Assembly (NCBI RefSeq): GCF_016127575.1 | Contig: NZ_CP066019.1 | Span: forward strand, 1,980,001 to 2,012,000 | Source: Cupriavidus necator | GTDB taxonomy: Bacteria; Pseudomonadota; Gammaproteobacteria; Burkholderiales; Burkholderiaceae | Direction: 5' to 3' | DNA length: 32,000 nucleotides | In this document: one piece after another, positions 4,696-28,815 of the stretch | How the letters are laid out: each line of letters begins with the position of its first letter | Position numbering within the stretch: the stretch's first letter is position 1 | The notes under the pieces: generated by a model | Told to the model about the DNA's origin: nothing | What the model saw: only the letters and a program-made list of their open reading frames with translations | Database searches by the model: none | Program-made: the position numbers and the translations under genes

Positions 4696-4747
4696 ATCAC
4701 CGTCTCCATGTCGCCGGCACGCTGACTGTGTCGCGCCGGTCGGTTTA

Positions 4748-7567: not shown

Positions 7568-7576
7568 GGATTCGCC

Positions 7577-8763: not shown

Positions 8764-8804
8764 CTGCCGGGCCCCCTCAGGCAGGCCCGGCGCCAGGGCG
8801 GCGC

Positions 8805-9998: not shown

Positions 9999-10126
9999 GG
10001 TGAGCCTCGTTGTCAGGACAGGATCAGATTGTAGGGCGGCACGCCGCCGGGCCGCTGTCACGGAAGGCCGTTCGCACAAGGAACCCCCGACATCTGGTCT
10101 GCAGCCCTTTGCCTGTCGAGCGACAA

Positions 10127-11659: not shown

Positions 11660-11678
11660 CGGCAATCAAGGAGCTCGC

Positions 11679-12764: not shown

Positions 12765-12802
12765 TCTGAACCTCTTCACCAGACACCACAAGCAACGACA
12801 CG

Positions 12803-13894: not shown

Positions 13895-15660
13895 CCGCCG
13901 TCGCCCTGCAACGCCGACCCCTACCCTGGCTGCGGCCCGCCTTGCTGGCCGCGCCGCTGGTGCTCCTGTTCGTGGTGCTGCTGGTCTACCCGGTCGGCCA
14001 GCTGCTGCTGCTGAGCGTCTACAGCGACGGTGCCTTCACGCTGGCCAAGTACCGCCAGCTGTTTGCGTCATCGGTCTACGTCGACGTGATGCTGATCACG
14101 CTGAAGATCTCGCTCTGGACCACGCTGCTCTCCGTGGTCGCCGGTTATCCGGTGGCCTACCTGATCTCCTCGCTGTCAAAGGACAGGAAGGCAAAGTGGC
14201 TGTTCTGGGTACTGCTGTCGTTCTGGACCAGCTTCCTGGTGCGCGCCTTTGCCTGGATCGTGATGCTGGGCCGCAACGGCGTGGTCAACCAGTTGCTGAG
14301 CGCCGCCGGCATCCAGGATGCGCCTTCCAACCTGCTGTACAGCCTCGGCGCCGTGCTGGTGGCGATGGTGCACGCGCTGATGCCGCTGGCGGTGCTGACC
14401 ATGCTGTCGGTGATGGAGAACATCGACCGCAACCTCCCGCGCGCGGCGCTTACGCTTGGGGCACGGCCTGGCACGGCGTTCTGGCGCGTCTACTTCCCGC
14501 TCTCGATGCCGGGCGTGGCGGCCGGCGCCATCATGGTGTTCGTCACCGCCGTCGGCTTCTTTATCGTGCCCGCGCTGCTGGGCGGACGCAAAGAGATCAT
14601 GGTCGCCCAGCTGATCATCGACCAGGTGCAGCAGACCATGAACTGGGGTTTCGCCGGCTCGATCTCGGTGTTGCTGCTGCTGGTCGTGCTGGCGGTGTTC
14701 GCCCTGTATGACAAGGTGCTCGGGCTCTCGTCGATGGCAGGCGGAGCGGAGCAACGCACCCGCTCCGCGGCCGCGCACGATGGCGTGCTGCATCGGCTCG
14801 GTGACAGCGTGCTGGGCGCACTGGGAGCGGTCAGCGACAAGCTGCTGGCACTGGTGCCGCGCGGCCGGCGCGAGCCGCAGCCGGGCGACTCGCTGCCGCT
14901 GCGCACGATCGTGCTGATGGTGCTGCTGTTCCTGAGCGTGCCGGCGCTGCTGATGATCCCGCTGTCGTTCGCCGACAAGTCGGGGCTGAACTGGCCGCCG
15001 CGCGGCTTCACGCTGCAGCACTACCAGGACATGCTCGCCTCGCCGCTGTGGATGCAGGCCGGGCTGCGCTCGCTGCTGGTCGGCCTTGGCGCCGCGGTGC
15101 TGGCGCTGCTGGTCGGCACGCCGGTGGCGTTCCTGCTGGCGCGCTCGCAGATGCGGGGCAAGTCGCTGCTGCTGGCGTTCGTGCTGTCGCCGATCATCAT
15201 CCCGCGCATGATCATCGCGGTGGGGATGTTCTACTTCTTCGCCAGGGTCGGGCTGGTCGGCACCTCGCTCGGTCTGATGATCGGCCACACCGTCATTGCC
15301 GTGCCCTACGTCGTCATGACGATGATGGCGGTGCTGCGCAACTACGACACGCGGCTCGACCTGGCGGCGCAAAGCCTGGGCGCCAGGCCCTGGCAGACGC
15401 TGCGCTACGTGACGCTGCCGATCCTCGCCGCCGGCCTGTTCTCGTCCTTCCTGTTCGCCTTCGCCACCTCGTTCGATGAGCTGACGATCGCCCTGTTTGC
15501 CTCTGGCGGACTGAGCGCCACCCTGCCCAAGCAGTTCTGGGACGAGGTGACGCTGCAGCTTTCACCGGTGATTGCCGCGGTGTCTACCTGCCTGTTCGTC
15601 TTCGTTACCCTCCTGATCACCTGCGCCGAGCGCTTGCGCCGCAAGAGCGCCGGGCGCTGA
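13891..15660 (+). CDS. ABC transporter permease, fused PotB-like plus PotC-like double domain
   Basis: 589 aa with two hydrophobic halves. Each half carries an EAA-type loop (MENIDRNLPRAALTLGARPGTAFWRVYFPL and LRNYDTRLDLAAQSLGARPWQTLRYVTLPI). They are joined by a polar linker (...GGAEQRTRSAAAHDG...RGRREPQPGD...). Confidence 0.9.
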   Translation: MTAVALQRRPLPWLRPALLAAPLVLLFVVLLVYPVGQLLLLSVYSDGAFTLAKYRQLFASSVYVDVMLITLKISLWTTLLSVVAGYPVAYLISSLSKDRKAKWLFWVLLSFWTSFLVRAFAWIVMLGRNGVVNQLLSAAGIQDAPSNLLYSLGAVLVAMVHALMPLAVLTMLSVMENIDRNLPRAALTLGARPGTAFWRVYFPLSMPGVAAGAIMVFVTAVGFFIVPALLGGRKEIMVAQLIIDQVQQTMNWGFAGSISVLLLLVVLAVFALYDKVLGLSSMAGGAEQRTRSAAAHDGVLHRLGDSVLGALGAVSDKLLALVPRGRREPQPGDSLPLRTIVLMVLLFLSVPALLMIPLSFADKSGLNWPPRGFTLQHYQDMLASPLWMQAGLRSLLVGLGAAVLALLVGTPVAFLLARSQMRGKSLLLAFVLSPIIIPRMIIAVGMFYFFARVGLVGTSLGLMIGHTVIAVPYVVMTMMAVLRNYDTRLDLAAQSLGARPWQTLRYVTLPILAAGLFSSFLFAFATSFDELTIALFASGGLSATLPKQFWDEVTLQLSPVIAAVSTCLFVFVTLLITCAERLRRKSAGR

Positions 15661-15671
15661 GAACCTTATCC

Positions 15672-16586
15672 ATGAACAACAAGCTTACCGCCGCCGACCT
15701 GCGCGGCATCTTCCCCGCCATCCCGACGCCCGTGACGGCCGACGACAGGATCGACCAGGACGCCACGCGCAAGCTGATGGCCTACCTGCTGGCCAACGGC
15801 GTTGCCGGCGTGGTGCCGCTGGGCGGCACCGGCGAATACGGTGCCCTGTCGCGCGAGGAGCGCGTCCGCATGGCAGCCCTTTGTGTCGAAGCAGCGGCTG
15901 GCCAGGTTCCCGTCATTCCCGGCGTGCTCGACCCGGGGTTCCACGATGCGCTGGATGCGGGCAAGGCCTTTGCCGGCGTCGGCGCCTCTGCCCTGATGGT
16001 GCTGACGCCCTATTACACCTCGCCGACCCAGCAAGGCATCCGCGACTACTTCCTGCGCTATGCCGACGCCTCGCCGGTGCCGGTCATGATCTACGAGATC
16101 CCCTACCGCACGCGGATCGCGATCGCGCCCGAGGTGCTGCACGAGCTGTCGCGCCACGAAAACATCATCGGCATGAAAGCCTGCAACACCGACATGTACC
16201 ACTTCCTCAAGGTGGTGGCGGGTGTCGACGACAGCTTCAGCGTGTTCAGCGGCGAGGACAGCCTGTTCCCGCTGCACATGGCGGCGGGTGCCAGGGGTGG
16301 CGTGGTCGTGACCGCCTCCGTGCTGCCGCGCACCTGGCGCACCATCTATGAGCTCGGCGTGGCCGGCAATACCGCGCAAGCGGTACGCCTGCACCGCCAG
16401 CTGATTCCGTTGCTGGACCTGGCCTTCTCCGAAACCAATCCTGGGCCGCTGAAATCCGTGCTCGACCTGGTGGGCGTGACCGCGCCTAAGGTGCTGGCAC
16501 CGCTGGTAGCGCCGGCACCCGGGCTGCAGGCACAGCTGCGTGCCGAACTGACGCAGCGGCTGCAAGCCGAGGCCGCCCTCGCCTGA
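15672..16586 (+). CDS. Dihydrodipicolinate synthase/N-acetylneuraminate lyase-family (class I pyruvate-dependent) lyase
   Basis: 304 aa. GGTGEYGALSREER (GxTGE motif), TPYYTSP (active-site Tyr region) and IIGMKACN (Schiff-base Lys region). Confidence 0.9.
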   Translation: MNNKLTAADLRGIFPAIPTPVTADDRIDQDATRKLMAYLLANGVAGVVPLGGTGEYGALSREERVRMAALCVEAAAGQVPVIPGVLDPGFHDALDAGKAFAGVGASALMVLTPYYTSPTQQGIRDYFLRYADASPVPVMIYEIPYRTRIAIAPEVLHELSRHENIIGMKACNTDMYHFLKVVAGVDDSFSVFSGEDSLFPLHMAAGARGGVVVTASVLPRTWRTIYELGVAGNTAQAVRLHRQLIPLLDLAFSETNPGPLKSVLDLVGVTAPKVLAPLVAPAPGLQAQLRAELTQRLQAEAALA

Positions 16587-16599
16587 GGCGCCGACGATC

Positions 16600-17757
16600 A
16601 TGCTGCCGGCCATCAAGGACTATCGGGACCTGGCGCGGCGCCGGCTGTCGCGCTTCGCCTTCGACTATCTGGAGGGAGGCGCGGAGGACGGGCGCACGCT
16701 GGCACGCAACCTGGCCGCATACCAGGCACTGCTGTTCCGGCCGCGCGTGCTGCGCGACGTCACGGAGACCGATCCCGGCATGGAGATCTTCGGCCGCAAG
16801 TACCGCCTGCCGTTGCTGGTGGGCCCCACGGGGCTGAACGGACTGTACTGGCCGAAGGCCGAAGAGGCGCTGGCACGGGCCGCACACGCTGAAGGACTGC
16901 CCTTCGTGATGTCGACTGCATCGACCTCGCTGATCGAAGACGTGCGCGCAGCCAGCGACGGCGACCTGTGGCTGCAGCTCTACGTGCAGCGCGACCGCGC
17001 CATCGCCGAGAGCATGATGGCGCGCGCACGCGCCGCCGGCTTCAGCACGCTGATGCTGACCGTCGACACCATGGTGCACGGCAAGCGCGACCATGACATC
17101 CGCAACGGCTTTCGCATGCCGGTGCCGTGGACGCCGCGGCTGCTGGCCGACCTCGCGGCACATCCGCGGTGGTGCCTGCGCATGCTGCGCCAGGGCGGCT
17201 CGCCGCAGCTGGTCAACCTGGCCCGCAGCAGCGGGATGGCCAACGACCTGAAGGCGCAGGCGGCGGGATTGAGCCGGCAGATGGACATGTCGCTGTGCTG
17301 GGACGACATCGCCTGGCTGCGCCGGCACTGGCACGGGCCCGTCATCATCAAGGGTATCCTTACGCCGGCCGACGCGGAAATCGCCGCCCGCCAGGGCCTG
17401 GATGGCATCGTGGTCAGCAACCACGGCGGCCGCCAGCTGGAAGGCGCGCCCAGCGCGGTCGAGATGCTGCCCGCCATCGTCGCGGCGGCGGGCGGGATGC
17501 ACGTATTCGTCGATGGCGGCGTGCGCCGCGGCGCCGACATCGCCAAGGCGCTGGCAATGGGCGCCCGCGGCGTGCTGGTGGGGCGCGCACCGCTGTACGG
17601 GCTGGCGGCGCGCGGTCCCCGCGGCGTGGCGGAAGTCCTGGCCATCCTGCGTGGAGAATTCGAGACCACGCTGCGGCTGCTCGGCGTTCCGCAGGCAGCC
17701 AGGCTGGACGCTGCCGCGCTCTCGGACGACCATGCCGCGCGGCTGGCCGCACTGTAA
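16600..17757 (+). CDS. FMN-dependent alpha-hydroxy-acid dehydrogenase/oxidase (LldD/mandelate dehydrogenase-like)
   Basis: 385 aa. N-terminus 'IKDYRDLARRRLSRFAFDYLEGGAEDGRTL', 'DHDIRNGF', catalytic His region 'VVSNHGGRQLEGAPS', and 'VDGGVRRGADIAKALAMGA'. Confidence 0.9.
   Translation: MLPAIKDYRDLARRRLSRFAFDYLEGGAEDGRTLARNLAAYQALLFRPRVLRDVTETDPGMEIFGRKYRLPLLVGPTGLNGLYWPKAEEALARAAHAEGLPFVMSTASTSLIEDVRAASDGDLWLQLYVQRDRAIAESMMARARAAGFSTLMLTVDTMVHGKRDHDIRNGFRMPVPWTPRLLADLAAHPRWCLRMLRQGGSPQLVNLARSSGMANDLKAQAAGLSRQMDMSLCWDDIAWLRRHWHGPVIIKGILTPADAEIAARQGLDGIVVSNHGGRQLEGAPSAVEMLPAIVAAAGGMHVFVDGGVRRGADIAKALAMGARGVLVGRAPLYGLAARGPRGVAEVLAILRGEFETTLRLLGVPQAARLDAAALSDDHAARLAAL
17617..17618. other. (placeholder intentionally not used)
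   Basis: Ignore this entry; it carries no claim. Confidence 0.
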
Positions 17758-17794
17758 GCCATGAAAACAATGACAAGGACGAGCAGGAGGTTGT

Positions 17795-18619
17795 GTGGAT
17801 TCAGGTAATGAAGGCAACGGGCTGCGCACAAGGCGCGAGCGTTCGTCCCTGTTCGTCGGTTCGGTGGAAAAGGCCTTCCAGGTGCTGGAAGCCTTCCACG
17901 GCCCGGACCGCCGCCTGATGTCGATGGCGGAAATCGCCCGGGCGGCCGATCTCGACCGCAGCGCCACCCAGCGGCTGGTGCACACACTGGAACAGCTGGG
18001 CTACATCCGGCGCCTGCCCGATTCGGCGATGTATGGGCTTGCGCCGAAGGCACTGGGCCTGTCGTACAACTACCTGCGCTCCAACGACCTGGTCGAGCGC
18101 GCATCGCCCTACCTGCTCGATATCAGCCGCACGCTGGGAGAAACCGCCAACCTGCAGGAACTCGACGGGCACGAAATCGTGTTCCTGGCCCGCTTCCCCG
18201 GGCAGCACCTGATCAACGTCGATTTCGGGGTCGGGTACCGGCTCCCGGCCGTGTACACCGCGTCCGGGATTGCGATCCTGTCGAAGCTGCCCGAAGCGCA
18301 GCGCCTGGAGGTGGTGCGGGCGACCGCACTGAACCCCATCACGCCGTTCACTGAAACCGACCCCGACAAGCTGATGACGGCGATCCGCGAGGCCGGTGAA
18401 CGCGGCTATGCCGTGGCCATGAACCAGACCGTGGTCGGCGACATCTCCGTCGCAGCCGCAATCACCGACCACCGCGGGCTGCCGGTCGGGGCCATCAATA
18501 TCTCAGTCCCGTCCACGCGCTGGACGCTGGAAACCGCCCAGGCCAAGCTGGCCCCGCATGTGCAAGTGGCGGCCATGTCGATCTCGCAGGCAAAGCGGAT
18601 GAGTTTCCAGACGGCATGA
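17795..18619 (+). CDS. IclR-family transcriptional regulator
   Basis: GTG 17795 sits just after AGGAGG (17785-17790). wHTH 'VEKAFQVLEAFHGPDRRLMSMAEIARAADLDRSATQRLVHTLEQLGYI' plus an effector domain. Confidence 0.85.
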   Translation: MDSGNEGNGLRTRRERSSLFVGSVEKAFQVLEAFHGPDRRLMSMAEIARAADLDRSATQRLVHTLEQLGYIRRLPDSAMYGLAPKALGLSYNYLRSNDLVERASPYLLDISRTLGETANLQELDGHEIVFLARFPGQHLINVDFGVGYRLPAVYTASGIAILSKLPEAQRLEVVRATALNPITPFTETDPDKLMTAIREAGERGYAVAMNQTVVGDISVAAAITDHRGLPVGAINISVPSTRWTLETAQAKLAPHVQVAAMSISQAKRMSFQTA

Positions 18620-18650
18620 GCGATGCCGGAAACGCCGCCGGCTTCGCTCA
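18617..18650. terminator. Hairpin spanning both convergent stop codons (candidate bidirectional terminator or attenuating structure)
   Basis: TGAGCGA-t-GCCGG-aaacgccg-CCGGC-t-TCGCTCA: 7 + 5 bp with one T/T mismatch. It includes the IclR TGA (18617-18619) and the SDR stop (TCA on the plus strand, 18648-18650). No U-tracts. Confidence 0.3.
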
Positions 18651-19400
18651 GATGGCCCGGCCTCCGTCAACGGGCATGTCGATGCCGGTAAGGAAGCGGG
18701 CACCCGGGCTTGCCAGGAAGACCGCGGCATTGGCCACGTCGGCCGGCTCGCACATTCGCCCCAGCGGTATGGTGGCAACAAAGCGGGCGCGGTTCTCGGC
18801 GGTGTCGGCAACCCCCATGAAGTCCTGCAGCAGCCCGGTCGCCGCCATCACGGGCGAGATCAGGTTGACCCGGATCCCGTGCGCGGCCAGTTCAACAGCC
18901 ATCGATTTCGACATCACGCTCACCGCGCCCTTCGAGCTGTTGTACCAGGTCAGCCCCGGGCGCGGCCGGTGGCTGCCGACCGAGCCGATATTGAGGATCA
19001 CGCCTTTGCCGCGCTGCTTCATCAGCGGCACGACCGCGCGTGCCATGTGGTAGATCGACTTGACGTTGACGGCGAAGACGCGGTCGAAGACCGCTTCGTC
19101 GACTTCCAGCATCGACTGATTCCGATGCGTGGTGCCGGCATTGTTGACGACCACGTCCGGCTCGCCGAAATGGTCGCAGCAGTGCTGCACCGCGGCGTTG
19201 ATCTGCGCCGGGCTGGTGACGTCGCACGGAGCCGCACTGGCATTCGGCCCCAACTCGTCCGCCAGTCTCTGCACGGCATCGCGATCGATATCGGCCAGCA
19301 CGACCTTCGCTCCCGCCTGGATAAAGGCCCGCGCAATCGCGGCGCCAAAGCCACTGCCTGCGCCCGTGACAATGGCAACCTGGTCTGATAGCTCCGACAT
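18648..19400 (-). CDS. Short-chain dehydrogenase/reductase (classical SDR)
   Basis: 250 aa. TGAGSGFG (TGxxxGxG), NNAG and YNSSK (YxxxK). SD GGGAGA upstream. The gene is 9 nt after the ALDH stop. Confidence 0.9.
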   Translation of the reverse strand: MSELSDQVAIVTGAGSGFGAAIARAFIQAGAKVVLADIDRDAVQRLADELGPNASAAPCDVTSPAQINAAVQHCCDHFGEPDVVVNNAGTTHRNQSMLEVDEAVFDRVFAVNVKSIYHMARAVVPLMKQRGKGVILNIGSVGSHRPRPGLTWYNSSKGAVSVMSKSMAVELAAHGIRVNLISPVMAATGLLQDFMGVADTAENRARFVATIPLGRMCEPADVANAAVFLASPGARFLTGIDMPVDGGRAI

Positions 19401-19409
19401 GTCGTCTCC

Positions 19410-20843
19410 CTATTGGTAGTGCTGCACGATGGTCTTGGTGGTGCTCATCTCTTCCAGCGCGAGGAAGCCCTTTTCCCGGCCGTACCCGCTCTTCTTGACG
19501 CCGCCGAAGGGCAGTTCGACCCCACCGCCGGCACCGTAGCAATTGATAAAGACCTGCCCGCTCTGCAGCCGCTGGCTGACCCGCATCTGCCGGCTGCCGT
19601 TCTCGGTCCACACGCCGGCGACCAGGCCGTAGTCGGTGGCATTGGCCAGCCGGATGGCATCCTCTTCGTCCGTGAACGGCATCACCGACAGCACTGGCCC
19701 GAATACCTCGATATTCGCCAGCGCGTGGTCGCGCGGCACCGGACCGAACAGGACCGGCCTGACGAAGTACCCACCCCGGGGCAAATCCGCCGCAAACCCG
19801 CCTTCGGCGATAACCGGCACGCCGCTGTCCCGCGCGGCCTCCACCAGCCCCATCACACGCCGGTACTGCCGCTCGCTGACGATCGGCCCGCAATCCAGAT
19901 CGGCGGCCGGCACGCCCGCCTGCAGGGCACGGAAGGCCTGCGCCACCATGCCGACGAAGCGATCGTAGATGCCTTGCTGCACCAGCAGCCGGCTGCCCGC
20001 CGAGCAGGTCTGCCCGGCGTTCTGGACAATGGCCTTGACCACGGCCGGCACCGCCTTGTCCAGGTCCGCGTCGTCGAAGACGATCTGCGGCGACTTGCCG
20101 CCCAGCTCAAGCACGCAGGGGACGTGGTTGGCCGCGGTTGCCTGCTGCACCAGGGCGCCGGCCTCGGGCGAGCCGGTAAAGGTGGCGAAATGGATGCCGG
20201 GGTTCGATGTCAGCGCGGCGCCTGCCTCCGCGCCATACCCGGTCACCAGGTTGAGGGCTCCGGGCGGCAGCCCGGCTTCCATGGCAAGCTCGGCAATCCG
20301 GATCACGCTCAGGCACGCATCCTCCGATGGCTTCAGCACCGCCGCATTGCCCATCGCCAGTGCCGGCGCCAGCGTGCGCCCCATCATCTGCGCCGGGTAG
20401 TTCCAGGGAATGATGTGGGCGGTCACGCCATGCGGGACGCGCACCACGCTCACGTTGTATCCGTCCAGGTACGGAATCGTCTGACCGTGGACCTTGTCGG
20501 CGGCGCCACCGTAGAACTCGAAGTACCTGGCCACCGCCCTGGCATCGGCGCGCGCGGCCGAGATCGGCTTGCCGGTGTCCTGCGCCTCGATTGCCGCCAG
20601 CTCTTCCGCGTGATCGAGAATGCCTTGTCCCAGCCGCTGCAGGATGCGCCCGCGTTCGGTCGCGGTCTTGCTGCCCCACTCGCCCTGCAAGGCATCCTGC
20701 GCCGCGCTCACCGCCTGCTGCACATCCGCGGCGCGGCCGCGGCTGATCTTCGCAAACGCCATGCCGTCACTGGGATCGATCACGTCGATGGTCTCGCCAT
20801 CGATGGCGCCGAGCCATTTCCCTCCGATGAGTAACGTCTTCAC
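19410..20843 (-). CDS. NAD(P)-dependent aldehyde dehydrogenase
   Basis: 477 aa with a GTG start at 20843 and SD GGAG 7 nt upstream. ELGGKSP (catalytic Glu region) and GQTCSAGSR (catalytic Cys region). Confidence 0.95.
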   Translation of the reverse strand: MKTLLIGGKWLGAIDGETIDVIDPSDGMAFAKISRGRAADVQQAVSAAQDALQGEWGSKTATERGRILQRLGQGILDHAEELAAIEAQDTGKPISAARADARAVARYFEFYGGAADKVHGQTIPYLDGYNVSVVRVPHGVTAHIIPWNYPAQMMGRTLAPALAMGNAAVLKPSEDACLSVIRIAELAMEAGLPPGALNLVTGYGAEAGAALTSNPGIHFATFTGSPEAGALVQQATAANHVPCVLELGGKSPQIVFDDADLDKAVPAVVKAIVQNAGQTCSAGSRLLVQQGIYDRFVGMVAQAFRALQAGVPAADLDCGPIVSERQYRRVMGLVEAARDSGVPVIAEGGFAADLPRGGYFVRPVLFGPVPRDHALANIEVFGPVLSVMPFTDEEDAIRLANATDYGLVAGVWTENGSRQMRVSQRLQSGQVFINCYGAGGGVELPFGGVKKSGYGREKGFLALEEMSTTKTIVQHYQ

Positions 20844-20950
20844 CCGCCGCTCCTGAACAGCACATCTATCGTCACCGCGGCCACTCCCGGCCTGTGCGCC
20901 TCGCGCAGGCCAGCGGTACCGCCTCAGCCCATGGAAATCGGTCTGCTCCC

Positions 20951-22051
20951 CTACTGGCTCCGCGCAAGCGAGCCCGGCGACTCCGACTCCTTCATGAACT
21001 CCGCGTCGTTGTAGTGATAGAGATCGTCCAGGTAGGGCACGAAGAAGTCATAGAACGAGCGCGAGTCATACCTGATCTCGTCCCCGGGCCTGACGCATTC
21101 CGGAATCGGCCCGACATTGGCGTCATCGTCCGGGTAGAAGAAGAAGGTCAGCGCATAGCGCTTCATCGGCGGATTGACCACGCGGTGCGGCGTGGCGATG
21201 AAGCGGTCGTTGGACAGGCGGTTCAGGATCTGGCCGGTGTTGACGATCAGCGCGTCCTTGACGTAGCTGACACTCAGCCACTCGCGCGACGGGGTCATGA
21301 CCTGCAGGCCGGGCACCGGGGTCATCGGCAGCAAGGTCAGGAAGCTGCCGTCGGAATGCGGCGCCAGCGCGTACTGGCCCTCGTCGAGGTGTTCCTCAGG
21401 ATGGTAGTAGGCGCAGCGCTGGTAGTATTCCGGCGCCTTGAACATGCTGTCGAAATAGTCCGCGCGCAGCTCCAGCGCCCTGGCGTAGATGGGCAGGAAC
21501 TTCAGCGCCAGGCGCTCCATCGACAACTGGTAGTCGTACAGCGTCTGGCGGAACTCCGGCAGGCTCTCCGGCCACTGGTTCAGGCCACGATGACGCACAT
21601 TGGCCCGCACCTTGGGGTCGTCCTCGGTGCGGTTGCGCATGAAAAGCCAGGCCGAATTGGTATCCTTCTTGGTGTTCTCCGCAATCTTGGTCCGGATCGC
21701 CTCGGACTTCAGGATGGATGCCTTCGGCGGCAGGTAGCCCTGGTGGTGATAGCCGACCCGGTGCCTGAGCTTCTCTTCCATCGGGATCTCGAAGAGCTTG
21801 GCGGTCTGGCGGAACGACTCGTCGATCAGGGCGTGCGGGATGCCGTGATTGATCACCGAGAAGAACCCCAGCTCCTCCTGGATCAGCTTGACGTCGGCGG
21901 CCAGTTGCTCAAGCGCGCCGGGCACGCCAGCCAGGTAGGGGCCCAGGTCGAGAATGGGCAGGTCGGTCCCGCGCGCTATGGCTGCGCGCACCTGCTCTGA
22001 GGGAGCGGCCTGCAACGGCTGGGCCGCAGCCCGGGATGGCATTGCTGTCAT
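20951..22051 (-). CDS. 2-oxoglutarate/Fe(II)-dependent oxygenase (isopenicillin-N-synthase-like family)
   Basis: 366 aa. N-terminal DIOX_N-like 'LPILDLGP...GFFSVINHGIP'. Facial triad H-x-D (APHSDGSFLTLL) and distal His (ATPHRV), followed by KRYALTFF. SD TAGGAGA upstream. Confidence 0.85.
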   Translation of the reverse strand: MTAMPSRAAAQPLQAAPSEQVRAAIARGTDLPILDLGPYLAGVPGALEQLAADVKLIQEELGFFSVINHGIPHALIDESFRQTAKLFEIPMEEKLRHRVGYHHQGYLPPKASILKSEAIRTKIAENTKKDTNSAWLFMRNRTEDDPKVRANVRHRGLNQWPESLPEFRQTLYDYQLSMERLALKFLPIYARALELRADYFDSMFKAPEYYQRCAYYHPEEHLDEGQYALAPHSDGSFLTLLPMTPVPGLQVMTPSREWLSVSYVKDALIVNTGQILNRLSNDRFIATPHRVVNPPMKRYALTFFFYPDDDANVGPIPECVRPGDEIRYDSRSFYDFFVPYLDDLYHYNDAEFMKESESPGSLARSQ

Positions 22052-22147
22052 GATCGGTGTCTCCTATGGTTTGACTGATACGGGGAACGTGCTGCCTTGC
22101 CCGCCGATACGGTGGATCGGCTTGATCAAACTTCCACTGCACACATC

Positions 22148-23392
22148 TCACTTCCAGAACGCGCATCGGGATTCCGCCCTGGAAGCAAAGGCCTGCTCCC
22201 CGGGAATCCGCTGCACCTCCTTGTAGTAGTCCCACGGCTGGCGTGATTCAGCCGGGCTCTTCACTTCCATCAGGCGCAGATCGTGCACCATGCGTCCGTC
22301 TCCGCGGATATAGCCGTTCTGGGCGTACATATCGTTGATGCGGGTGGCCTTCATGCCGGCGATCACCTTCGCGGCGGCGTCCGTGCCGGCAGCCTTCACC
22401 GCGCGCAGATAGTGCTGTGTCGCCGAGTAGCTGGCCGCCTGCATGCTGGTGGGCTTCTTCTTCATCTTGTCCTGGAACCGCCCTGCCCACTTCCTTGAGT
22501 CATCGCTCTGGTCCCAGTACCAGGCTTCGGTCAGGGTGATGCCCTGGGTCAGTCCCAGGCCGAGGGCGTGCACATCCGTGATGAACAGCATCAGCCCCGC
22601 GATCTTCATCGACCTGGAGATGCCGAATTCGTTGGCCGCCTTGATCGCATTGATGGTGTCGCCGCCGCCGTTGGCCAGCCCCAGGACCTGGGCCCGCGAT
22701 GCCTTGGCCTGCAGCAGGAAGGAGGAAAAATCGGAGGCGGACAAAGGATGCCGGACGCTGCCCAGGACCTTGCCGCCGCCGGCGGTGACCACCGCCGCGG
22801 TCTCCTTCTCCAGCGAGGCGCCAAAGGCATAGTCCACCGTCAGGAAGTACCACGACCGTCCGCCCTGCCTGGTCATGGCGGCACCGGTGCCCCTGGCCAG
22901 GGCCACGGTGTCATAGAGATAGTGGATGGTATAGGGCGAGCACTCCTCATTGGTCAGCTGCGCCGCCACGCCGCCGGTCACCATGACCGGGCGCTGCTTT
23001 TCCGCTGCGACCTTGGCCACCGCCAGGCTGGTGCCGGAACTGGGCCCGCTGATGATCATGTCCACCCCTTGCCGGTCGAACCACTCGCGGGCCTGCGTGG
23101 CCGCGGTATCGGGCTTGCCGGCATGGTTGGCGTGGACCAGCTCGATGCGCTTGCCGTTGATCTCGCCGCCGGCATCCGCAATCGCCATCCGCACTGCCTC
23201 GACCAGGCCGTTGCCGCCCATGTCAGAGTAAAGCCCTGACATGTCCGCCAGCACGCCGATCTTCACCGACTCGTCGCTGAACTGGGCCGCAGCCGGTCCG
23301 GCCAGGGCCAGGCCGGCCATGCCCAGCAACGCAGCCGGCCACCTGATCCGCCTTGCCCGGCCTTCAGGCACTCGTTTTCTATTTATCCGCAT
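22148..23392 (-). CDS. ABC-type periplasmic binding protein, Leu/Ile/Val (LivJ)-type PBP1 family; orphan (no adjacent permease or ATPase)
   Basis: ATG 23392 with strong SD GGAGGGGAG. Signal 'WPAALLGMAGLALAGPAAAQ', then 'VKIGVLADMSGLYSDMGGNG', typical of this family. Confidence 0.9.
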   Translation of the reverse strand: MRINRKRVPEGRARRIRWPAALLGMAGLALAGPAAAQFSDESVKIGVLADMSGLYSDMGGNGLVEAVRMAIADAGGEINGKRIELVHANHAGKPDTAATQAREWFDRQGVDMIISGPSSGTSLAVAKVAAEKQRPVMVTGGVAAQLTNEECSPYTIHYLYDTVALARGTGAAMTRQGGRSWYFLTVDYAFGASLEKETAAVVTAGGGKVLGSVRHPLSASDFSSFLLQAKASRAQVLGLANGGGDTINAIKAANEFGISRSMKIAGLMLFITDVHALGLGLTQGITLTEAWYWDQSDDSRKWAGRFQDKMKKKPTSMQAASYSATQHYLRAVKAAGTDAAAKVIAGMKATRINDMYAQNGYIRGDGRMVHDLRLMEVKSPAESRQPWDYYKEVQRIPGEQAFASRAESRCAFWK

Positions 23393-23426
23393 CTCCCCTC
23401 CTGTCGACAGATTGCACTGCATCCGT

Positions 23427-23762
23427 TCACGCCCGCATCCCGCCTGGTGGCGCTGCCTCTGCCCCGGCCGGGCTGGCCAATGCGGACAGGTGCGCTTTCC
23501 TGAGCCTGCGCAACTGCCCCGGATTTGCCCGCACGCTTTCCACCGTTTCGAAATAGCGCCACAGTTCCCCGTCTATGTCGGCACGCAGCCTGATCGCGTC
23601 CAGCAGGCGGATTACCGCCAGCCGCTCGTGCCGCATCCTGACGCTGTGCCGCAGCAGCGCCAGCGCGGCCGCCCGCACATCTGGCACCTGGTGCGCCGGG
23701 GTTTCGGCGCGGCCGGCGGTGCGGATGGTTTTCTTGAGTGCCTTGATTCTTTCGCGCGACAT
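23427..23762 (-). CDS. Hypothetical Arg-rich, predicted helical protein (111 aa)
   Basis: ATG 23762, 37 nt after the meaB stop (MSRERIKALKKTIRTAGRAE...). The frame mostly uses G/C-ending codons. No recognisable motif. The ORF-track N-terminal extension to 23876 overlaps meaB. Confidence 0.45.
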   Translation of the reverse strand: MSRERIKALKKTIRTAGRAETPAHQVPDVRAAALALLRHSVRMRHERLAVIRLLDAIRLRADIDGELWRYFETVESVRANPGQLRRLRKAHLSALASPAGAEAAPPGGMRA

Positions 23763-23799
23763 GGTGCTTGCGGCTCCGGCGTTGTTCGGACTGGCAGCG

Positions 23800-24702
23800 C
23801 TACGCGCCAATGGCTTTGCCCAGCTGGGTCCAGGCCTGGGACAGCTGCTGCCGCAGTGGCAGGGCCAGGAATTCATCGTCCTGATTGGCGACCACCTCGG
23901 CGACCTGGACCTCGAGCAGGCGCTTCAGCCGGTAGCGGGCCCGCTGCCTGCGCAAGGCCGCCTGCCGCCCGGCGGCAGCCAGCCACGCCTGGTGCCGGTC
24001 GATGGCATCGGACAGAGCACTGACCGAGGCGGGACGCGATGCCGCGGTCAGCAGCACCGGCGGAACCCACGCGCCCTGCGCATGCCGCGTGATGGCGCCG
24101 ATGCGCCGGATATCCGTGGCCATGCGCTGGGCGCCCGGCAGGTCTGCCTTGTTGACGACGAAGATATCGGCCATTTCCATGATTCCCGCCTTCATCGCCT
24201 GCACCATGTCCCCACTGTCCGGCAACAACAGCAGCACCAGCGTATCGACCTGCGCGCGCGCCGCGTATTCCGTCTGGCCGACACCGACCGTTTCCAGCAG
24301 CACCTCGGCAAAGCCGAAGTCATCCATCGCATCCAGCATCTCCGGGAGGTTGTCAGCCAGGCCATCCGAGGTGCCGCGCGAGCCCAGCGAGCGGATGTAG
24401 AGTTCCGGGCTGGTGCCAAGCTCATCCATGCGGATCCGGTCCCCGAGGATGGCGCCGCCGCTCCTGGGACTGCTGGGATCCACCGCGAGCACGCCGAGGC
24501 GCCCCTTAGACGCGCGCGCCATGGCGAGGTGGCCCAACAGGGTGCTCTTGCCCGCGCCGGGCGCACCGGTCATGCCGATGCGCCTGGCCGGATGCAGCGG
24601 GGTATCCCGCTGCGCTCGCTGCACCAGCTCCGCGGGCGTGGCGTTGGCGATGCGGGTCAGCGTCCGGCCCAGCGCGCCCCGGTCGAGCGAGGACGGGTTC
24701 AT
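23800..24702 (-). CDS. meaB: MeaB/ArgK-type G-protein chaperone of B12-dependent mutases
   Basis: 300 aa. P-loop GMTGAPGAGKST, ETVGVGQ (switch region) and NKAD (VVNKADL). The start overlaps the CoA-transferase stop (ATGA, 24699-24702). Confidence 0.9.
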   Translation of the reverse strand: MNPSSLDRGALGRTLTRIANATPAELVQRAQRDTPLHPARRIGMTGAPGAGKSTLLGHLAMARASKGRLGVLAVDPSSPRSGGAILGDRIRMDELGTSPELYIRSLGSRGTSDGLADNLPEMLDAMDDFGFAEVLLETVGVGQTEYAARAQVDTLVLLLLPDSGDMVQAMKAGIMEMADIFVVNKADLPGAQRMATDIRRIGAITRHAQGAWVPPVLLTAASRPASVSALSDAIDRHQAWLAAAGRQAALRRQRARYRLKRLLEVQVAEVVANQDDEFLALPLRQQLSQAWTQLGKAIGA

Positions 24703-25826
24703 GGCGCCACCTTGCCCAGGACTTCATCGCGATGCTCGTCAAGCAACGGCGGCAGGCCATAGCTCGGCTCGTAATCCGAGAAGCGGATCGGGCTTGCCAC
24801 CGCGCGCAGCGGCAACTCGCCCTGCCCCAGCGCCACGATCAGCGAGCGCGCAGCGGTGATGTCGCTGCCCAACGCCTCATTCAATGTGCCCACCTCCGAC
24901 ACCACCACGCCCTGTGGCCCCAGGCGCCGCACCCATTGCGCCGCCGGGGCGGAGCGCAGCACCTCGGCAATCTCGGGTATCACCTCGGCACGGTGCGCGC
25001 GGCGGCCCGCCATGGTGGCAAAGCGCGGATCCGTGGTCCACGCCGGCCGGTCCACCTCCTCGCAGAAGGTCTTCCAGAAGCGGTCATGGGTGATGAAAAG
25101 CGTCAGCCAGCCCTTGGCGGTCGGGAAGATCTGTGCGGGCACCAGGTAGGGATGCGACGAGTCGGCCAGCCGCTCGATGGTCTCCCCCGCGTTCAGGGCG
25201 GCCCCGGCAAGGTAGTTGAGCTGTGACAGCATCACGTCGTACATGGCCACGTCCACCTGCCCACCCCGCCCCTGCACGATCTTCGCAAGCAAGCCCACTG
25301 CGGCAACCAGGCCAGCCGAGTTGTCCACCGCCGAGTAGCCGGCCTTGGTGGGCGGTGCCGCCGGATCTCCCGTCAAGGCCATGACCCCGGTCATGGCCTG
25401 GATCACATAGTCGTATGCCGGGCTGTCCGAATAGGGGCCGTCAAGGCCGTAGCCGGTGACGGCCACGCAGACCAGCTGCTCATTCCACTGGCGCAGCACC
25501 TCGTAGGTGAGCCCGAGCTTGCGCACCGCCGCCGGACGCAGGTTGGTCACCAGCGCATGGGATTGCCGCAACAGCCGCCCGAGTGCCAGCGTCCCTGCCT
25601 CGCTGGCGAGGTCGAGCACCACGCTTTTCTTGTTGCGGTTCAGGCTGGCAAAGTAGGCATTGTGCGGGCCGATGAAATGGGGGCTGATGGTGCGGCCGAT
25701 ATCACCTTCCGGGGTCTCGATCTTGATCACCTCGGCGCCCAGGTCGGTCATCATCAGCCCGCAGTAGGGCCCGGCAAGCATGTGGCCGACTTCGATGATG
25801 CGGATGCCGGCAAGGGGCGCGCTCAC
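24699..25826 (-). CDS. Family III CoA-transferase (CaiB/BaiF/Frc-like)
   Basis: 375 aa with a GTG start at 25826 overlapping the upstream stop (GTGA). N-terminus 'PLAGIRIIEVGHMLAGPYCGLMMTDLGAEVIKIE' is typical of family III. Confidence 0.9.
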   Translation of the reverse strand: MSAPLAGIRIIEVGHMLAGPYCGLMMTDLGAEVIKIETPEGDIGRTISPHFIGPHNAYFASLNRNKKSVVLDLASEAGTLALGRLLRQSHALVTNLRPAAVRKLGLTYEVLRQWNEQLVCVAVTGYGLDGPYSDSPAYDYVIQAMTGVMALTGDPAAPPTKAGYSAVDNSAGLVAAVGLLAKIVQGRGGQVDVAMYDVMLSQLNYLAGAALNAGETIERLADSSHPYLVPAQIFPTAKGWLTLFITHDRFWKTFCEEVDRPAWTTDPRFATMAGRRAHRAEVIPEIAEVLRSAPAAQWVRRLGPQGVVVSEVGTLNEALGSDITAARSLIVALGQGELPLRAVASPIRFSDYEPSYGLPPLLDEHRDEVLGKVAP

Positions 25827-26239
25827 GCCAGGCTCCTGCCCAGATTGCTGACCACCGTCTCCAGCGGCATGTCGGCGGTAAACACAGCGGTGACCCCCAG
25901 CGTCCGCAGGAAGGGCTGGTCCTCGGCGGGAATGGTGCCGCCGACAAAGACCTTGATGTCATGCGCATTGAGTTCGCGCAGCTGGGCGATGACCTCCCCC
26001 ACCAGCTCCTTGTGGCTGCCAGACAGGATGCTCAGGCCGACTGCGTCAACGCCCTCGTCGACAGCGACCTGCGCGATCTGCAATGGGCTGCGGCGCAGGC
26101 CGGTGTAGATGACTTCGGCACCGGCATTGCGCAACGTCAGCGCGATGATCTTCGCGCCGATATCGTGGCCGTCCAGGCCGGGCTTGCCAATCAGTATCCG
26201 CTTGCCGGACAACGCGCCGGCGGCTTGCAAGGTGTTCAT
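25823..26239 (-). CDS. B12-binding small subunit of a split acyl-CoA mutase
   Basis: ATG 26239 gives 138 aa. Cobalamin-binding DxHxxG motif (GLDGHDIGAK) and 'GLSILSGSH'. ATGA overlap with the large-subunit stop (26236-26239). Confidence 0.9.
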   Translation of the reverse strand: MNTLQAAGALSGKRILIGKPGLDGHDIGAKIIALTLRNAGAEVIYTGLRRSPLQIAQVAVDEGVDAVGLSILSGSHKELVGEVIAQLRELNAHDIKVFVGGTIPAEDQPFLRTLGVTAVFTADMPLETVVSNLGRSLA

Positions 26240-27861
26240 AGGTTCACCGGCTCCTTGAATTCGCCCCATTGCTGCTTCAGGCAAGCCACCATCTCTCCGA
26301 CCGTGGCATAGGCATGGCAGCAATCCACCAGATAGGGCATGACGTTCTCGCTGTCCCTGGCGGCCGCGGCCGTCAGCCGGGCCAGCGATGCGTCCACGGC
26401 TGACTGCTGGCGCGTATCCAGCACGCGCTGGAACTTCTCCAGGGCCCGCTGCGCGACGGTCGGATCCAGCGTGAACACCTCGCCGACCCGGATCTCCTCC
26501 CCCTCCTTCCTGAAGTGGTTCTGGCCGACGATGACGGTCTGGCCGGAATCGGTGTCCAGCTTGCGCTGCAGGCCCCGCTCGGCCAGCCGCATCTGGATCC
26601 AGCCATCCTCGATGGCAGGGATCACGCCGCCGTACGCCTCGATCTCGTCCATCACGTGGACGATCTGCGCCTCCATCCGGTCGGTGTGCTGCTCCAGGAA
26701 GTAGCTGCCGCCCAGCGGATCGACGGTCCGGCCGATGCCGCTTTCATAGGCGATGATCTGCTGCGTGCGCACGGCCAGCTCGGCGGAGAACTCGGTCGGG
26801 ATCTGGAAGGCCTCGTCGAAGGCACAGGTGAAGATCGACTGGGCCCCGCCCAGCACCGCGGCCATGGTCTCCACCGCCACCCGCACCACGTTGTTGTAAG
26901 GCTGGGGCGCCACCAGCGACGATCCCCCGCAGACGACCCCGAAGCGGAAATGCTGGGCCTTCGCATCCCTGGCGCCATAGCGCTCCTTCATCAGGCGCGC
27001 CCAGAGCCGGCGGCCCGCCCGGAACTTGGCGATCTCGTCGAAGAAGTCCATGTGCACGTAGAAGAAGAAGGACAGGCGCTTGGCAAACTTCTCCACGTCG
27101 CCGCCCCGGGCACGCAGCTCGTCCACATAGGCCAGTCCGTTGGCCAGGGTGTACGCCATTTCCTCGGCCGCGGTGGCCCCCGCGTCGCGCACATGGGCGC
27201 CGGCGATGCTGATGGGGTTGAAGCGTGGCGAGACCTCGTTCGAATAGAGGATCGAATCGGCGATCAGCCGCATCGACGGCCGCACCGGGAAGATCCAGGT
27301 GCCGCGCGCGACGTACTCCTTCAGGATGTCGTTCTGGATCGTGCCGGTCAGCTTGCTGCGCGGCACGTTCTGCTTGTCTGCGACGGCCAGGTACATGGCA
27401 TAGACGATCGCGGCCGTACCGTTGATGGTGAACGAGGTCGAGATCCTTGACAGGTCCAGGCCGTCGAACAGGATCTCGGCCTCGCTCAGGTTCGACAGCG
27501 ACACGCCGACCTTGCCGATTTCCGGCCGGGCCATCGGGTGGGTCGGATCGAAGCCGCATTGGGTCGGCAGGTCCAGCGCCACTGAAAGGCCGGTCTGGCC
27601 CTGCGCCAGCAGGAACTTGTAGCGCTCGTTGGACTCCTCCGCGGTGCCGAATCCCGAGTACTGGCGGATGGTCCACAGCCGGCCCTGGTAGCCATCGGGA
27701 AAGATGCCGCGCGTGAACGGGTAGCTGCCGGGGTCCCCGATCTTGTCCGGATGGACCGCCGCCGCATCCACGCTCGCCGGAACCTCGATGCCGCTCTGGC
27801 TGACCGGCCGCAAGGCCGGCTCGGCGCCCGCATCCGTCATGGACAGCTCAGCGTTGCTCAT
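26236..27861 (-). CDS. Adenosylcobalamin-dependent acyl-CoA mutase, large (substrate-binding) subunit; methylmalonyl-CoA-mutase family, divergent
   Basis: ATG 27861 (SD GGAGG upstream; ATGA overlap with the crotonase stop) gives 541 aa. Family motifs YPFTRG, WTIRQYSGFGT, GLSVALDLPT, GTIQNDILKEY, PYNNVVR. Confidence 0.92.
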   Translation of the reverse strand: MSNAELSMTDAGAEPALRPVSQSGIEVPASVDAAAVHPDKIGDPGSYPFTRGIFPDGYQGRLWTIRQYSGFGTAEESNERYKFLLAQGQTGLSVALDLPTQCGFDPTHPMARPEIGKVGVSLSNLSEAEILFDGLDLSRISTSFTINGTAAIVYAMYLAVADKQNVPRSKLTGTIQNDILKEYVARGTWIFPVRPSMRLIADSILYSNEVSPRFNPISIAGAHVRDAGATAAEEMAYTLANGLAYVDELRARGGDVEKFAKRLSFFFYVHMDFFDEIAKFRAGRRLWARLMKERYGARDAKAQHFRFGVVCGGSSLVAPQPYNNVVRVAVETMAAVLGGAQSIFTCAFDEAFQIPTEFSAELAVRTQQIIAYESGIGRTVDPLGGSYFLEQHTDRMEAQIVHVMDEIEAYGGVIPAIEDGWIQMRLAERGLQRKLDTDSGQTVIVGQNHFRKEGEEIRVGEVFTLDPTVAQRALEKFQRVLDTRQQSAVDASLARLTAAAARDSENVMPYLVDCCHAYATVGEMVACLKQQWGEFKEPVNL

Positions 27862-28637: not shown

Positions 28638-28815
28638 GCTGTTCTGCCTCCCGACTGGTTTGAATGGATGCTAGGCGGGGGTTTATTCCGGCACAAGAAC
28701 GCTAGTTCCGTATCTCGAACAAATGAGTACAATGCAGCGGAATACGGCCACGCCGCCGGCGTTTGTTCAGCCGGCCGAATTTCTTCCAGCCAGGTGCAAG
28801 CGAAAGGAGGGGACT

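Follow-up and report, generated by a model that had tools for sequence, protein, structure and literature searches.

Chromosome 2 of Cupriavidus necator H16 raises the question of why the genes of a B12-dependent acyl-CoA mutase are continued, on the same strand, by genes encoding an oxygenase, an aldehyde dehydrogenase (ALDH), a short-chain dehydrogenase/reductase (SDR), and a lone periplasmic binding protein. The window analyzed here, a stretch of 32,000 nucleotides (AM260480.1, ~2.065-2.087 Mb, reverse strand), contains ten minus-strand genes in an unbroken run (18648-28637), with a divergent gene for an IclR-family regulator beyond it. We divided the run into module A, also called the cassette (crotonase-fold protein, large and small mutase subunits, CoA-transferase, and MeaB; 23800-28637), and module B (small open reading frame [ORF], binding protein, oxygenase, ALDH, and SDR; 18648-23762). 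The run very probably forms one functional unit with a dicarboxyl-CoA intermediate and a B12-dependent rearrangement. The fuller reading, in which the region 18648-29574 is a single IclR-controlled catabolic unit of two modules with the mutase working in the Sbm-like direction, has in our estimate a probability of about 0.45.

Linkage of the oxygenase block to the mutase cassette

Relatives of the oxygenase were collected from one genome per species (GTDB representatives), and their 20-kb loci were tested for all window genes. Among 19 distinct loci with an oxygenase of at least 70% identity, the cassette was present in 17, ALDH and SDR in 18, and the binding protein in 16. This close group comprised Cupriavidus, Polaromonas, Variovorax, Hydrogenophaga, Achromobacter, Rhodoferax, Comamonas, Acidovorax, Diaphorobacter (on a plasmid), and Burkholderia. 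Oxygenases with 45-60% identity came from marine and freshwater Alphaproteobacteria; 20 of their 26 loci with at least 6.5 kb of downstream sequence carried the cassette, and ALDH, SDR, and the binding protein were found in none. The 32 loci of paralogs below 45% identity had neither the cassette, ALDH and SDR, nor the binding protein, and the context of one paralog (locus L073) was uninformative. The cassette thus lay beside the oxygenase in 37 of 45 informative loci of the orthologous clade and in 0 of 32 paralog loci. Conserved co-localization had been set beforehand as a check on the original prediction, and these counts bear it out.

The linkage was also retained on a plasmid (L087), and in a metagenome-assembled genome (MAG) of Burkholderiaceae (L019) the cassette was inverted relative to the ALDH-SDR-binding protein-oxygenase block and still adjoined it. 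The alphaproteobacterial order was oxygenase, crotonase-fold gene, mutase, B12 subunit, CoA-transferase, and MeaB, so that the oxygenase is the first gene of the cassette operon there. Part of the alphaproteobacterial synteny was not counted as evidence, since the MAGs are related and the far-upstream genes have housekeeping functions (QueA, QueG, LpxR, and PEBP). Because the linkage is clade-specific and occurs in two classes and in two gene orders, there is strong evidence of functional coupling, and a functional tie between the oxygenase/ALDH/SDR block and the mutase cassette is well supported by the comparison of loci.

The oxygenase gene (20951-22051, minus strand) was assigned to the 2-oxoglutarate (2OG)/Fe(II) enzymes of the isopenicillin N synthase (IPNS)/DIOX_N class from its Pfam matches (DIOX_N, 2.3e-20; 2OG-FeII_Oxy, 3.1e-18). 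The iron triad H232-x-D234...H289 and R298, as the basic residue for the 2OG C5 carboxylate, were invariant in 45 homologs, and the AlphaFold model (pLDDT 86) shows a double-stranded beta-helix. A PDB sequence search and Foldseek, tried as a way to the function of the enzyme, gave class-level matches only: the best structural matches were an ancestral ethylene-forming enzyme (EFE, 29% identity), thymine-7-hydroxylase (T7H), SpoC, and CC_0200, with target-normalized TM-scores of ~0.8-0.9 to EFE, T7H, and SpoC. The fold and the Fe/2OG ligands are shared with T7H and other DIOX_N/2OG-FeII_Oxy enzymes. T7H oxidizes a methyl group stepwise to a carboxylate, and this chemistry resembles that proposed below for the oxygenase together with SDR and ALDH, a likeness at only 24-25% identity that carries no evidence on substrate or iterative oxidation.

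The ALDH gene (19410-20843, minus strand; Pfam Aldedh, 1.5e-156) encodes an NAD(P)-dependent, non-acylating enzyme with the general-base Glu (E246 in ELGGKSP, residue 246) and the catalytic Cys (C280 in GQTCSAG, residue 277), and a near-orthologous structure is available from Burkholderia cenocepacia (4ywe). The last gene of the run (18648-19400, minus strand; Pfam adh_short_C2, 1.4e-65) encodes a classical SDR with the motifs TGAGSGFG (TGxxxGxG, residue 12), NNAG (86), and Y153xxxK, and it invariably followed ALDH in the 18 loci having it. The LivJ-type binding protein (22148-23392, minus strand; Pfam Peripla_BP_6, 9.3e-108) has an N-terminal signal sequence and a near-orthologous structure from Burkholderia mallei (3i09, 1.4e-156). 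Of a LivJ-HMGF importer, the binding protein alone is encoded: no LIV-type permease or ATPase was found in the window, and the sole ATP-binding cassette (ABC) system there, one of the SBP_bac_8/BPD_transp_1 type (11679-15660), forms part of another operon on the plus strand. The binding protein thus lacks a partner within the window, as had been described. Its gene was absent from the cluster of Burkholderia sp. PU8-34.

The mutase cassette and its relatives

Module A starts with the crotonase-fold gene (27858-28637; Pfam ECH_1, 3e-41), which is followed on the minus strand by genes for the large subunit of an adenosylcobalamin (AdoCbl)-dependent acyl-CoA mutase (26236-27861, 541 aa; Pfam MM_CoA_mutase, PF01642, 3.9e-188), its B12-binding small subunit (25823-26239, 138 aa; PF02310, 2.5e-21; TIGR00640, 128 bits), a family III (CaiB/BaiF) CoA-transferase (24699-25826; Pfam CoA_transf_3, PF02515, 4e-105, residues 5-365), and a MeaB-type G-protein chaperone of the mutase (23800-24702; Pfam MeaB, 3.2e-71; TIGR00750, 243 bits against a cut-off of 240.75). 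The small subunit carries the DxHxxG motif as DGHDIG (residue 23), and MeaB contains the P-loop GAPGAGKST and the NKAD motif. The PF01642 domain, the B12-binding domain with DxHxxG, and the co-encoded MeaB place the enzyme in the AdoCbl acyl-CoA mutase superfamily. Public annotations of the run are generic ('Dioxygenase', 'methylmalonyl-CoA mutase alpha subunit', '3-hydroxybutyryl-CoA dehydratase').

The mutase scored 542 bits with the NCBIfam equivalog model for methylmalonyl-CoA mutase (MCM; NF006944), below its cut-off of 876, and had 2-hydroxyisobutyryl-CoA mutase (HCM) HcmA as its best PDB match (4r3u, E 9e-149). In the alignment to 1req and human MCM, the carboxylate clamp of MCM is retained as Tyr89 (RQY) and Arg207 (YVARG), in agreement with the original prediction. 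The Tyr243-His244 pair (GYH in MCM and HCM) is replaced by GAH, with Ala222 of the window enzyme in place of Tyr243, and RFGVVCGGSSL stands where MCM has R(T)HSQTSGWSL, that is, GVVCGGS for H-x-Q-T-S-G-W at residues 328-334. Both signatures were invariant in 39 orthologs (16 betaproteobacterial, 20 alphaproteobacterial, and 3 others). In a library clustered at 50% identity, with truncated fragments set aside, the nearest other full-length clusters were at most 56% identical. These results suggest that the mutase represents a distinct subfamily rather than a canonical MCM, and its specificity is probably new. In our reading, the pocket with Tyr243 changed to Ala and the Gly-rich 328-333 loop would be enlarged.

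Like HcmAB/MeaH and the isobutyryl- and pivalyl-CoA mutases, which resolve branched skeletons, the enzyme has split subunits and a MeaB-type chaperone. Unlike HCM (Ile90, Asp117, Gln208) and isobutyryl-CoA mutase (ICM; Phe, Gln), it carries Tyr, Ala, and Arg, and thus the carboxylate clamp, at the corresponding positions of the alignment with HcmA. The parallel with 2-hydroxyisobutyryl- and pivalyl-CoA mutases that had been drawn for this locus finds no support in the HCM and ICM specificity residues, none of which the enzyme has.

Of the two catalytic Glu residues of hydratases, the crotonase-fold protein has the first (residue 117, in GGGAEL). The second is replaced: IQAR aligns with the LPE of 5zai, 3kqf, 6lvp, and 5jbw (Glu144 and Glu164 of rat enoyl-CoA hydratase being the reference pair), and Ala or Gly stands there in 40 of 40 orthologs as well as in three cassettes that have no oxygenase. 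Because the second catalytic Glu is missing, this 'enoyl-CoA hydratase' is not a canonical one. It shares 26% identity over 170 residues with E. coli ScpB, whose catalytic His66 is replaced by Gly (AGHDI aligned with AGGDL), and it is no ortholog of ScpB.

The CoA-transferase fell under all NCBIfam equivalog cut-offs. Its nearest characterized families are the succinate-glutarate, oxalate, succinyl-CoA:mesaconate, SUGCT, and hydroxymethylglutarate transferases, all acting on dicarboxylates. Since the clamp residues are kept, the CoA-transferase relatives use dicarboxylates, and carboxylate transporters adjoin the cassette, the enzymes point to a substituted dicarboxyl-CoA that would be rearranged between succinyl- and malonyl-type forms.

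A search of annotated plasmids and chromids with the mutase revealed orthologs at 71-73% identity on a Marinobacter plasmid, a Sulfitobacter dubius plasmid, and Paraburkholderia chromids. In Sulfitobacter and Paraburkholderia, the unit consists of IclR, crotonase-fold protein, mutase, B12 subunit, CoA-transferase, and MeaB, without oxygenase, ALDH, or SDR; it is followed by a TAXI-type tripartite ATP-independent periplasmic (TRAP) binding protein with a fused permease in the former and by DctPQM in the latter. The Marinobacter plasmid carries the same five cassette genes without an adjoining IclR gene, then a corrinoid adenosyltransferase gene, with insertion sequence (IS) elements flanking. 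The mutase and crotonase signatures were identical in all three. A few kb from the Marinobacter cassette lies an ALDH gene whose product is 63% identical to the window ALDH, adjoining a non-homologous hydroxy-acid dehydrogenase of the 3-hydroxyisobutyrate dehydrogenase (HIBADH) family, in the SDR's stead, and a DctP binding protein. A PDR/VanB oxidoreductase gene upstream of the Sulfitobacter cassette was considered as an alternative oxygenase front end and dropped, as the gene of an IS6-type transposase lies between the two.

Additionally, a cluster-specific TctC gene was found directly behind MeaB in at least eight betaproteobacterial (Burkholderiales) loci and elsewhere in the locus in three more. 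TRAP and tripartite tricarboxylate transport (TTT) systems are carboxylate importers. The substrate of the cassette itself is therefore almost certainly a carboxylic acid, which some bacteria would take up directly. By its gene contexts, module A is thus an autonomous mobile cassette to which the oxygenase block is accessory.

The small ORF of module B (23427-23762, minus strand, 111 aa) had no match in Pfam or NCBIfam. Achromobacter, Comamonas, Polaromonas, Diaphorobacter, and Burkholderia have ORFs in the corresponding place (e.g., L087 10279-10581, L088 9619-9888, and L094 ~14991) that are 41-48% identical to it and share the conserved core 'ARDAALALLRHSV.MRH.RLAVIRLLDA', usually right behind the cluster-specific TctC gene; no homolog was found in the Variovorax, Hydrogenophaga, Rhodoferax, and Acidovorax loci, with the exception of a weak, displaced match in L016. 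On this evidence H16 appears to have lost the TctC gene and kept the small ORF. The longest ORF at this position (23427-23876, 149 aa) overlaps meaB and was rejected as a gene.

Known systems resemble the cluster in part. The E. coli scpA-argK-scpB-scpC 'sleeping beauty' operon, which converts succinate to propionate, combines a mutase, a GTPase, a crotonase-fold enzyme, and a CoA-transferase by which CoA is recycled (PMC3850637). The same four functions stand together here: a clamp-bearing AdoCbl mutase (43% identical to ScpA), a MeaB/ArgK GTPase, a crotonase-fold protein, and a CoA-transferase. Unlike in the scp operon, the mutase is split and has the GAH/GVVCGGSSL pocket, the crotonase-fold protein is divergent from ScpB as described above, the CoA-transferase is of family III and unrelated to ScpC, and an IclR regulator, transporter proteins, and the oxidative block are added.

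The anaerobic indoleacetate pathway of Aromatoleum includes the family III phenylsuccinyl-CoA transferase IaaL, the phenylsuccinyl/benzylmalonyl-CoA mutase IaaGH, and the binding protein IaaM (PMC8360864). It is likened to the window, by description alone, in its family III CoA-transferase, two-subunit B12 mutase, and periplasmic binding protein gene; there, however, the acyl-CoA dehydrogenase IaaF rather than a crotonase performs the decarboxylation, and the pathway runs anaerobically, without a 2OG oxygenase.

ActD and MatB-MatQ of actinonin and matlystatin biosynthesis are proposed hexylmalonyl-CoA mutases, with ActD/MatB split and of an HCM-like subclass (PMC5719088). The window mutase is likewise nearest to HcmA among solved structures, and its outgroup at 56% identity (Streptomyces and soil) has GAH and GVVCGG. 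ActD/MatB and ethylmalonyl-CoA mutase (ECM) are biosynthetic or assimilatory and accompanied by crotonyl-CoA carboxylase/reductase and a VOC-type epimerase, whereas the window mutase, compared with them by description alone, has a CoA-transferase, a crotonase-fold protein, and transporters as partners.

In the sister branch at ~56% identity (Streptomyces and soil metagenomes, L096-L098), the AGAH motif is kept; L096 also retains RFGVVCGGSTL, and P0242 has the variant GVVCGGWTL. L096 shows the order crotonase-mutase-B12 subunit and L097 a mutase-B12 pair, both without an adjoining CoA-transferase or MeaB. These enzymes may be alkylmalonyl-CoA mutases of secondary metabolism. The 56% homolog of Streptomyces sp. 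N50 (L093, NZ_CP137550) was rejected as a cassette member, since the cassette architecture is missing; only a distant crotonase-like ORF lies ~5 kb off on the opposite strand. Matches listed in a metagenome scan with the mutase were mostly unrelated mutases at ~50% identity, and only L094-L098 were useful.

A corrinoid adenosyltransferase gene directly follows the cluster in Achromobacter-type loci (L013/L014, ~13403-13925; L094, ~20065) and on the Marinobacter plasmid (L089, 16233-16802), and its product would supply AdoCbl to the mutase. The H16 window contains no such gene.

Proposed pathway and alternatives

From these gene contents we infer the substrate class, feeder role, mutase direction, crotonase activity, and co-transcription in the following scheme. 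The family III CoA-transferase would load CoA on a substituted C4-C6 dicarboxylate (a substituted succinate). The MeaB-assisted AdoCbl mutase would then grip the free carboxylate by its Tyr/Arg clamp and move the thioester between neighboring carbons, converting alkyl-succinyl-CoA to alkyl-malonyl-CoA as in the logic of E. coli Sbm. Decarboxylation by the crotonase-fold enzyme would yield an ordinary acyl-CoA, which could enter beta-oxidation or give its CoA to the next substrate molecule via the transferase. In module B, the LivJ-type protein would capture a more reduced precursor, the 2OG oxygenase would hydroxylate a C-H bond of it to give a hydroxy acid, and SDR and ALDH would convert the alcohol, through an aldehyde, into the second carboxylate and so produce the cassette substrate.

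The role of module B as a feeder is somewhat favored, because the cassette occurs without the oxygenase, because module B has its own binding protein immediately upstream of the oxygenase, and because of the ALDH and HIBADH genes of Marinobacter. The LivJ-type protein is distinct from the TctC and TRAP proteins behind the cassette. A HIBADH-family gene is also present in the alphaproteobacterial loci, so that, together with the Marinobacter plasmid, a 'hydroxy-acid dehydrogenase (+ ALDH)' recurs with non-homologous parts. That the front end supplies the CoA-transferase and mutase with a dicarboxylate is plausible, with indirect support from the TRAP-adjoining cassettes, the dicarboxylate-type relatives of the CoA-transferase, and the Marinobacter ALDH/HIBADH pair. 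We slightly prefer the Sbm-like direction of the mutase over the opposite one, because it is the only version that metabolically completes the Sulfitobacter and Paraburkholderia loci for a substrate other than plain methylmalonate. Of the earlier suggestions, terminal-methyl oxidation, substrates with a quaternary carbon, and the likeness to pivalyl- and 2-hydroxyisobutyryl-CoA mutases are purely speculative, and nothing supports quaternary-carbon substrates specifically.

Several observations weigh against this scheme. ALDH, SDR, and the binding protein were absent within 10 kb in 32 of 32 alphaproteobacterial loci, which instead contain a split ComDE/Ppd-like thiamine pyrophosphate (TPP) decarboxylase, a luciferase-like oxidoreductase, a citryl-CoA-lyase-like protein, and a PaaK-like ligase; for lack of ALDH and SDR there, oxygenase-SDR-ALDH is not a universal logic. 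No weight is placed on these alphaproteobacterial neighbors, as the MAGs are related. ALDH, SDR, and the binding protein do not belong to the conserved core, and module B is a lineage-specific add-on of Burkholderiales. One oxygenase of the close group (L021, 77% identity) was solitary, and the 96- and 107-nt gaps of module B could conceal internal promoters. The decarboxylase role is unproven, given the low identity to ScpB and the loss of His66, and an epimerase or isomerase role of the crotonase-fold protein would suit the opposite mutase direction. The oxygenase substrate is not readable from sequence or fold, as the identity to any solved structure is at most 29%. The likeness of the mutase to ECM, IaaGH, and ActD/MatB is one of description alone, and our literature search found no paper describing the cluster, nor experimental or expression data. 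The same search agreed with the earlier statement that no pathway with this gene set has been described.

The opposite direction gives the nearest alternative, which stands close to the original prediction and which we regard as possible but doubtful. Here, too, there would be two modules, with the mutase working as in MCM or ECM: the feeder would yield a 2-substituted malonate (e.g., methyl-, ethyl-, or dimethyl-malonate from isobutyrate, 2-methylbutyrate, or pivalate), the crotonase-fold protein would epimerize its CoA ester, and the mutase would form succinyl- or methylsuccinyl-CoA, with the succinyl-type product as CoA donor. The MCM equilibrium favors the succinyl side, succinyl-CoA is the donor for the relatives of the CoA-transferase, and HIBADH-family enzymes, as found in Marinobacter and the alphaproteobacterial loci, typically oxidize 3-hydroxy acids to malonate-type semialdehydes. 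Moreover, an epimerase is normally required in alkylmalonyl-CoA mutase pathways (PMC5719088), and none of the VOC type is encoded in the cassette. However, since the pocket differs from that of MCM and is enlarged in our reading, an alkylsuccinyl-CoA would be formed; its further conversion calls for dehydrogenase, hydratase, and lyase enzymes, which are missing from the minimal cassette-plus-TRAP loci, and plain methylmalonate as substrate would not require a divergent mutase. We also know of no precedent for a crotonase-fold alkylmalonyl-CoA epimerase.

It is unlikely that the oxygenase block takes its turn only once the cassette has acted, or uses CoA thioesters, for instance hydroxylating the rearranged product before SDR and ALDH finish the oxidation. 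Such a role would agree with the alphaproteobacterial loci, in which the oxygenase belongs to the cassette operon, just ahead of the crotonase-fold gene and without ALDH and SDR; distant oxygenase paralogs also lie near CoA-transferase and crotonase genes, and one plant enzyme of this family, feruloyl-CoA 6'-hydroxylase (4xae), has a CoA ester as its substrate. It is opposed by the oxygenase-free cassette in three lineages, by the binding protein immediately upstream of the oxygenase, which suggests an imported compound, and by the hydrolytic ALDH, which yields a free acid and is better placed at the entry than at the exit. Far less probable, and disfavored, is that the two halves are unrelated neighbors, with oxygenase, ALDH, SDR, and binding protein forming a separate pathway beside a methylmalonyl-CoA mutase operon. 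The two long gaps in module B and the solitary L021 oxygenase would agree with this, as would the other exception of the close group, Xanthobacter L020, in which oxygenase, ALDH, and SDR lie beside IS elements on a short contig of 8.7 kb. Against it stand the linkage in two classes of Proteobacteria that differ in gene order, its survival of rearrangement, its restriction to the orthologous oxygenase clade, and a mutase that is not a canonical MCM.

The two-module unit with the Sbm-like direction remains our preferred reading. Overall, the cluster has the character of B12-mutase-dependent acid catabolism around a member of the acyl-CoA mutase superfamily that differs from MCM, HCM, and ICM and has partners differing from ScpB and ScpC. 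To our knowledge, few acyl-CoA mutase specificities have been described so far, and every one of them has led to a new pathway or to a tool for metabolic engineering. The subfamily is widespread in soil and freshwater Burkholderiales, with further members in marine Alphaproteobacteria, Marinobacter, and a roseobacter, and the host C. necator H16 is a genetically tractable industrial bacterium. The binding proteins adjoining the cassette (TRAP, TAXI, TctC, and LivJ-type) provide an experimental handle on the substrate, whose identity would assign a function to ten generically annotated genes and could bring to light a B12-dependent node in the turnover of organic acids in the sea.

Five marine alphaproteobacterial loci (L036, L048, L024, L025, and L027) contain the oxygenase with HIBADH, TPP-decarboxylase, or IclR neighbors and lack mutase and MeaB; the crotonase-fold gene is mostly kept, and L036 also has the CoA-transferase. 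In L036, genes for a TauD-family dioxygenase and an SMP30/gluconolactonase-like protein (10969-14691) occupy the vacated place. Such loci could represent a B12-independent bypass of the rearrangement step. A broader proposal, which we hold only tentatively, is that the new mutase specificity and the 2OG oxygenase constitute an aerobic route, so far undescribed, on which a branched or beta-oxidation-blocked acid might be degraded via substituted succinyl/malonyl-CoA in Burkholderiales and abundant marine Alphaproteobacteria, some marine lineages having swapped the B12 step for a TauD-type dioxygenase and an SMP30-like lactonase.

Operon layout and surrounding genes

The five genes from the crotonase-fold gene through MeaB overlap by 4 nt at each junction, and the gaps measured from MeaB to SDR are 37, 34, 96, 107, and 9 nt. 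Gene identities, strand, and gaps were exactly as originally given, and the catalytic motifs are intact. The five genes that had been placed in 18648-23392 are real, although the small ORF lies just outside that range. The G+C content at third codon positions (GC3) was 0.83-0.90 in the large genes, 0.79 in the small ORF, and 0.62-0.70 in overlapping antisense ORFs, which backs the large-gene calls. The G+C content of the window is even (~0.64-0.72).

Consensus scans revealed no sigma-70-like or intrinsic-terminator-like sites above chance in the intergenic gaps. The sole strong hairpin of the run lies at the very end of the operon, between the convergent SDR and neighboring IclR genes: a 13-nt inverted repeat (18617-18650, 92% complementary, 8-nt loop), which is likely a bidirectional terminator and was absent from the output of the T-tract terminator scan. 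The overlaps in module A, the short gaps in module B, the lack of an internal promoter or terminator match, and the terminal hairpin suggest one operon, and the ten genes are likely co-transcribed. In addition, a GC-rich 10-bp stem with a 3-nt loop and no T-tract (20889-20911) in the oxygenase-ALDH gap could act as an RNA-stability or attenuation element. An Rfam search of the window yielded no riboswitch or other RNA.

The regulator gene (28816-29574, plus strand; Pfam HTH_IclR and IclR_C) diverges from the operon; the public call has 252 aa, and the longest ORF begins at 28723. Orthologs with 71-83% identity lie divergently beside the cassette in betaproteobacterial loci, and orthologs with 43-51% identity precede it in Sulfitobacter and Paraburkholderia. 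By its position, the region 28638-28815 is the presumed promoter/operator of both the IclR gene and the operon; a sigma-70 consensus scan of it gave no match.

In Burkholderia sp. PU8-34 (L088 13391-21101), the cluster adjoins genes for TetR (RutR-like), an M20 peptidase, a dihydropyrimidine dehydrogenase-like protein, a cytosine/purine permease, and a dihydropyrimidinase-like protein. Reductive pyrimidine catabolism yields beta-alanine and beta-aminoisobutyrate, precursors of malonate- and methylmalonate-semialdehyde. This neighborhood was not used as a substrate clue, being a single case that may be a coincidence.

A separate plus-strand operon (10226-18619) converges on the cluster. It encodes a GlcD-like FAD-linked oxidase, an SBP_bac_8 binding protein, a TOBE-domain ABC ATPase, a fused double permease (589 aa, strongly T-rich), a DHDPS-family protein, an FMN-dependent 2-hydroxy-acid dehydrogenase, and its own IclR regulator, and from these genes it looks like a hydroxy-acid or sugar-acid utilization system. 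The segment 1-10079 contains an RraA-like ORF, a 2-hydroxyacid dehydrogenase gene, a pair encoding AtuA and an AtuA ferredoxin-like protein (6212-7927), an IclR gene (7945-8862), and an acyl-CoA dehydrogenase gene (8805-10079). It is also rich in 'Bug'/TctC binding-protein genes (2169-3173, 3691-4965, and 5178-6173), with another at 30249-31241; in this part of the genome, binding proteins are usually orphans.

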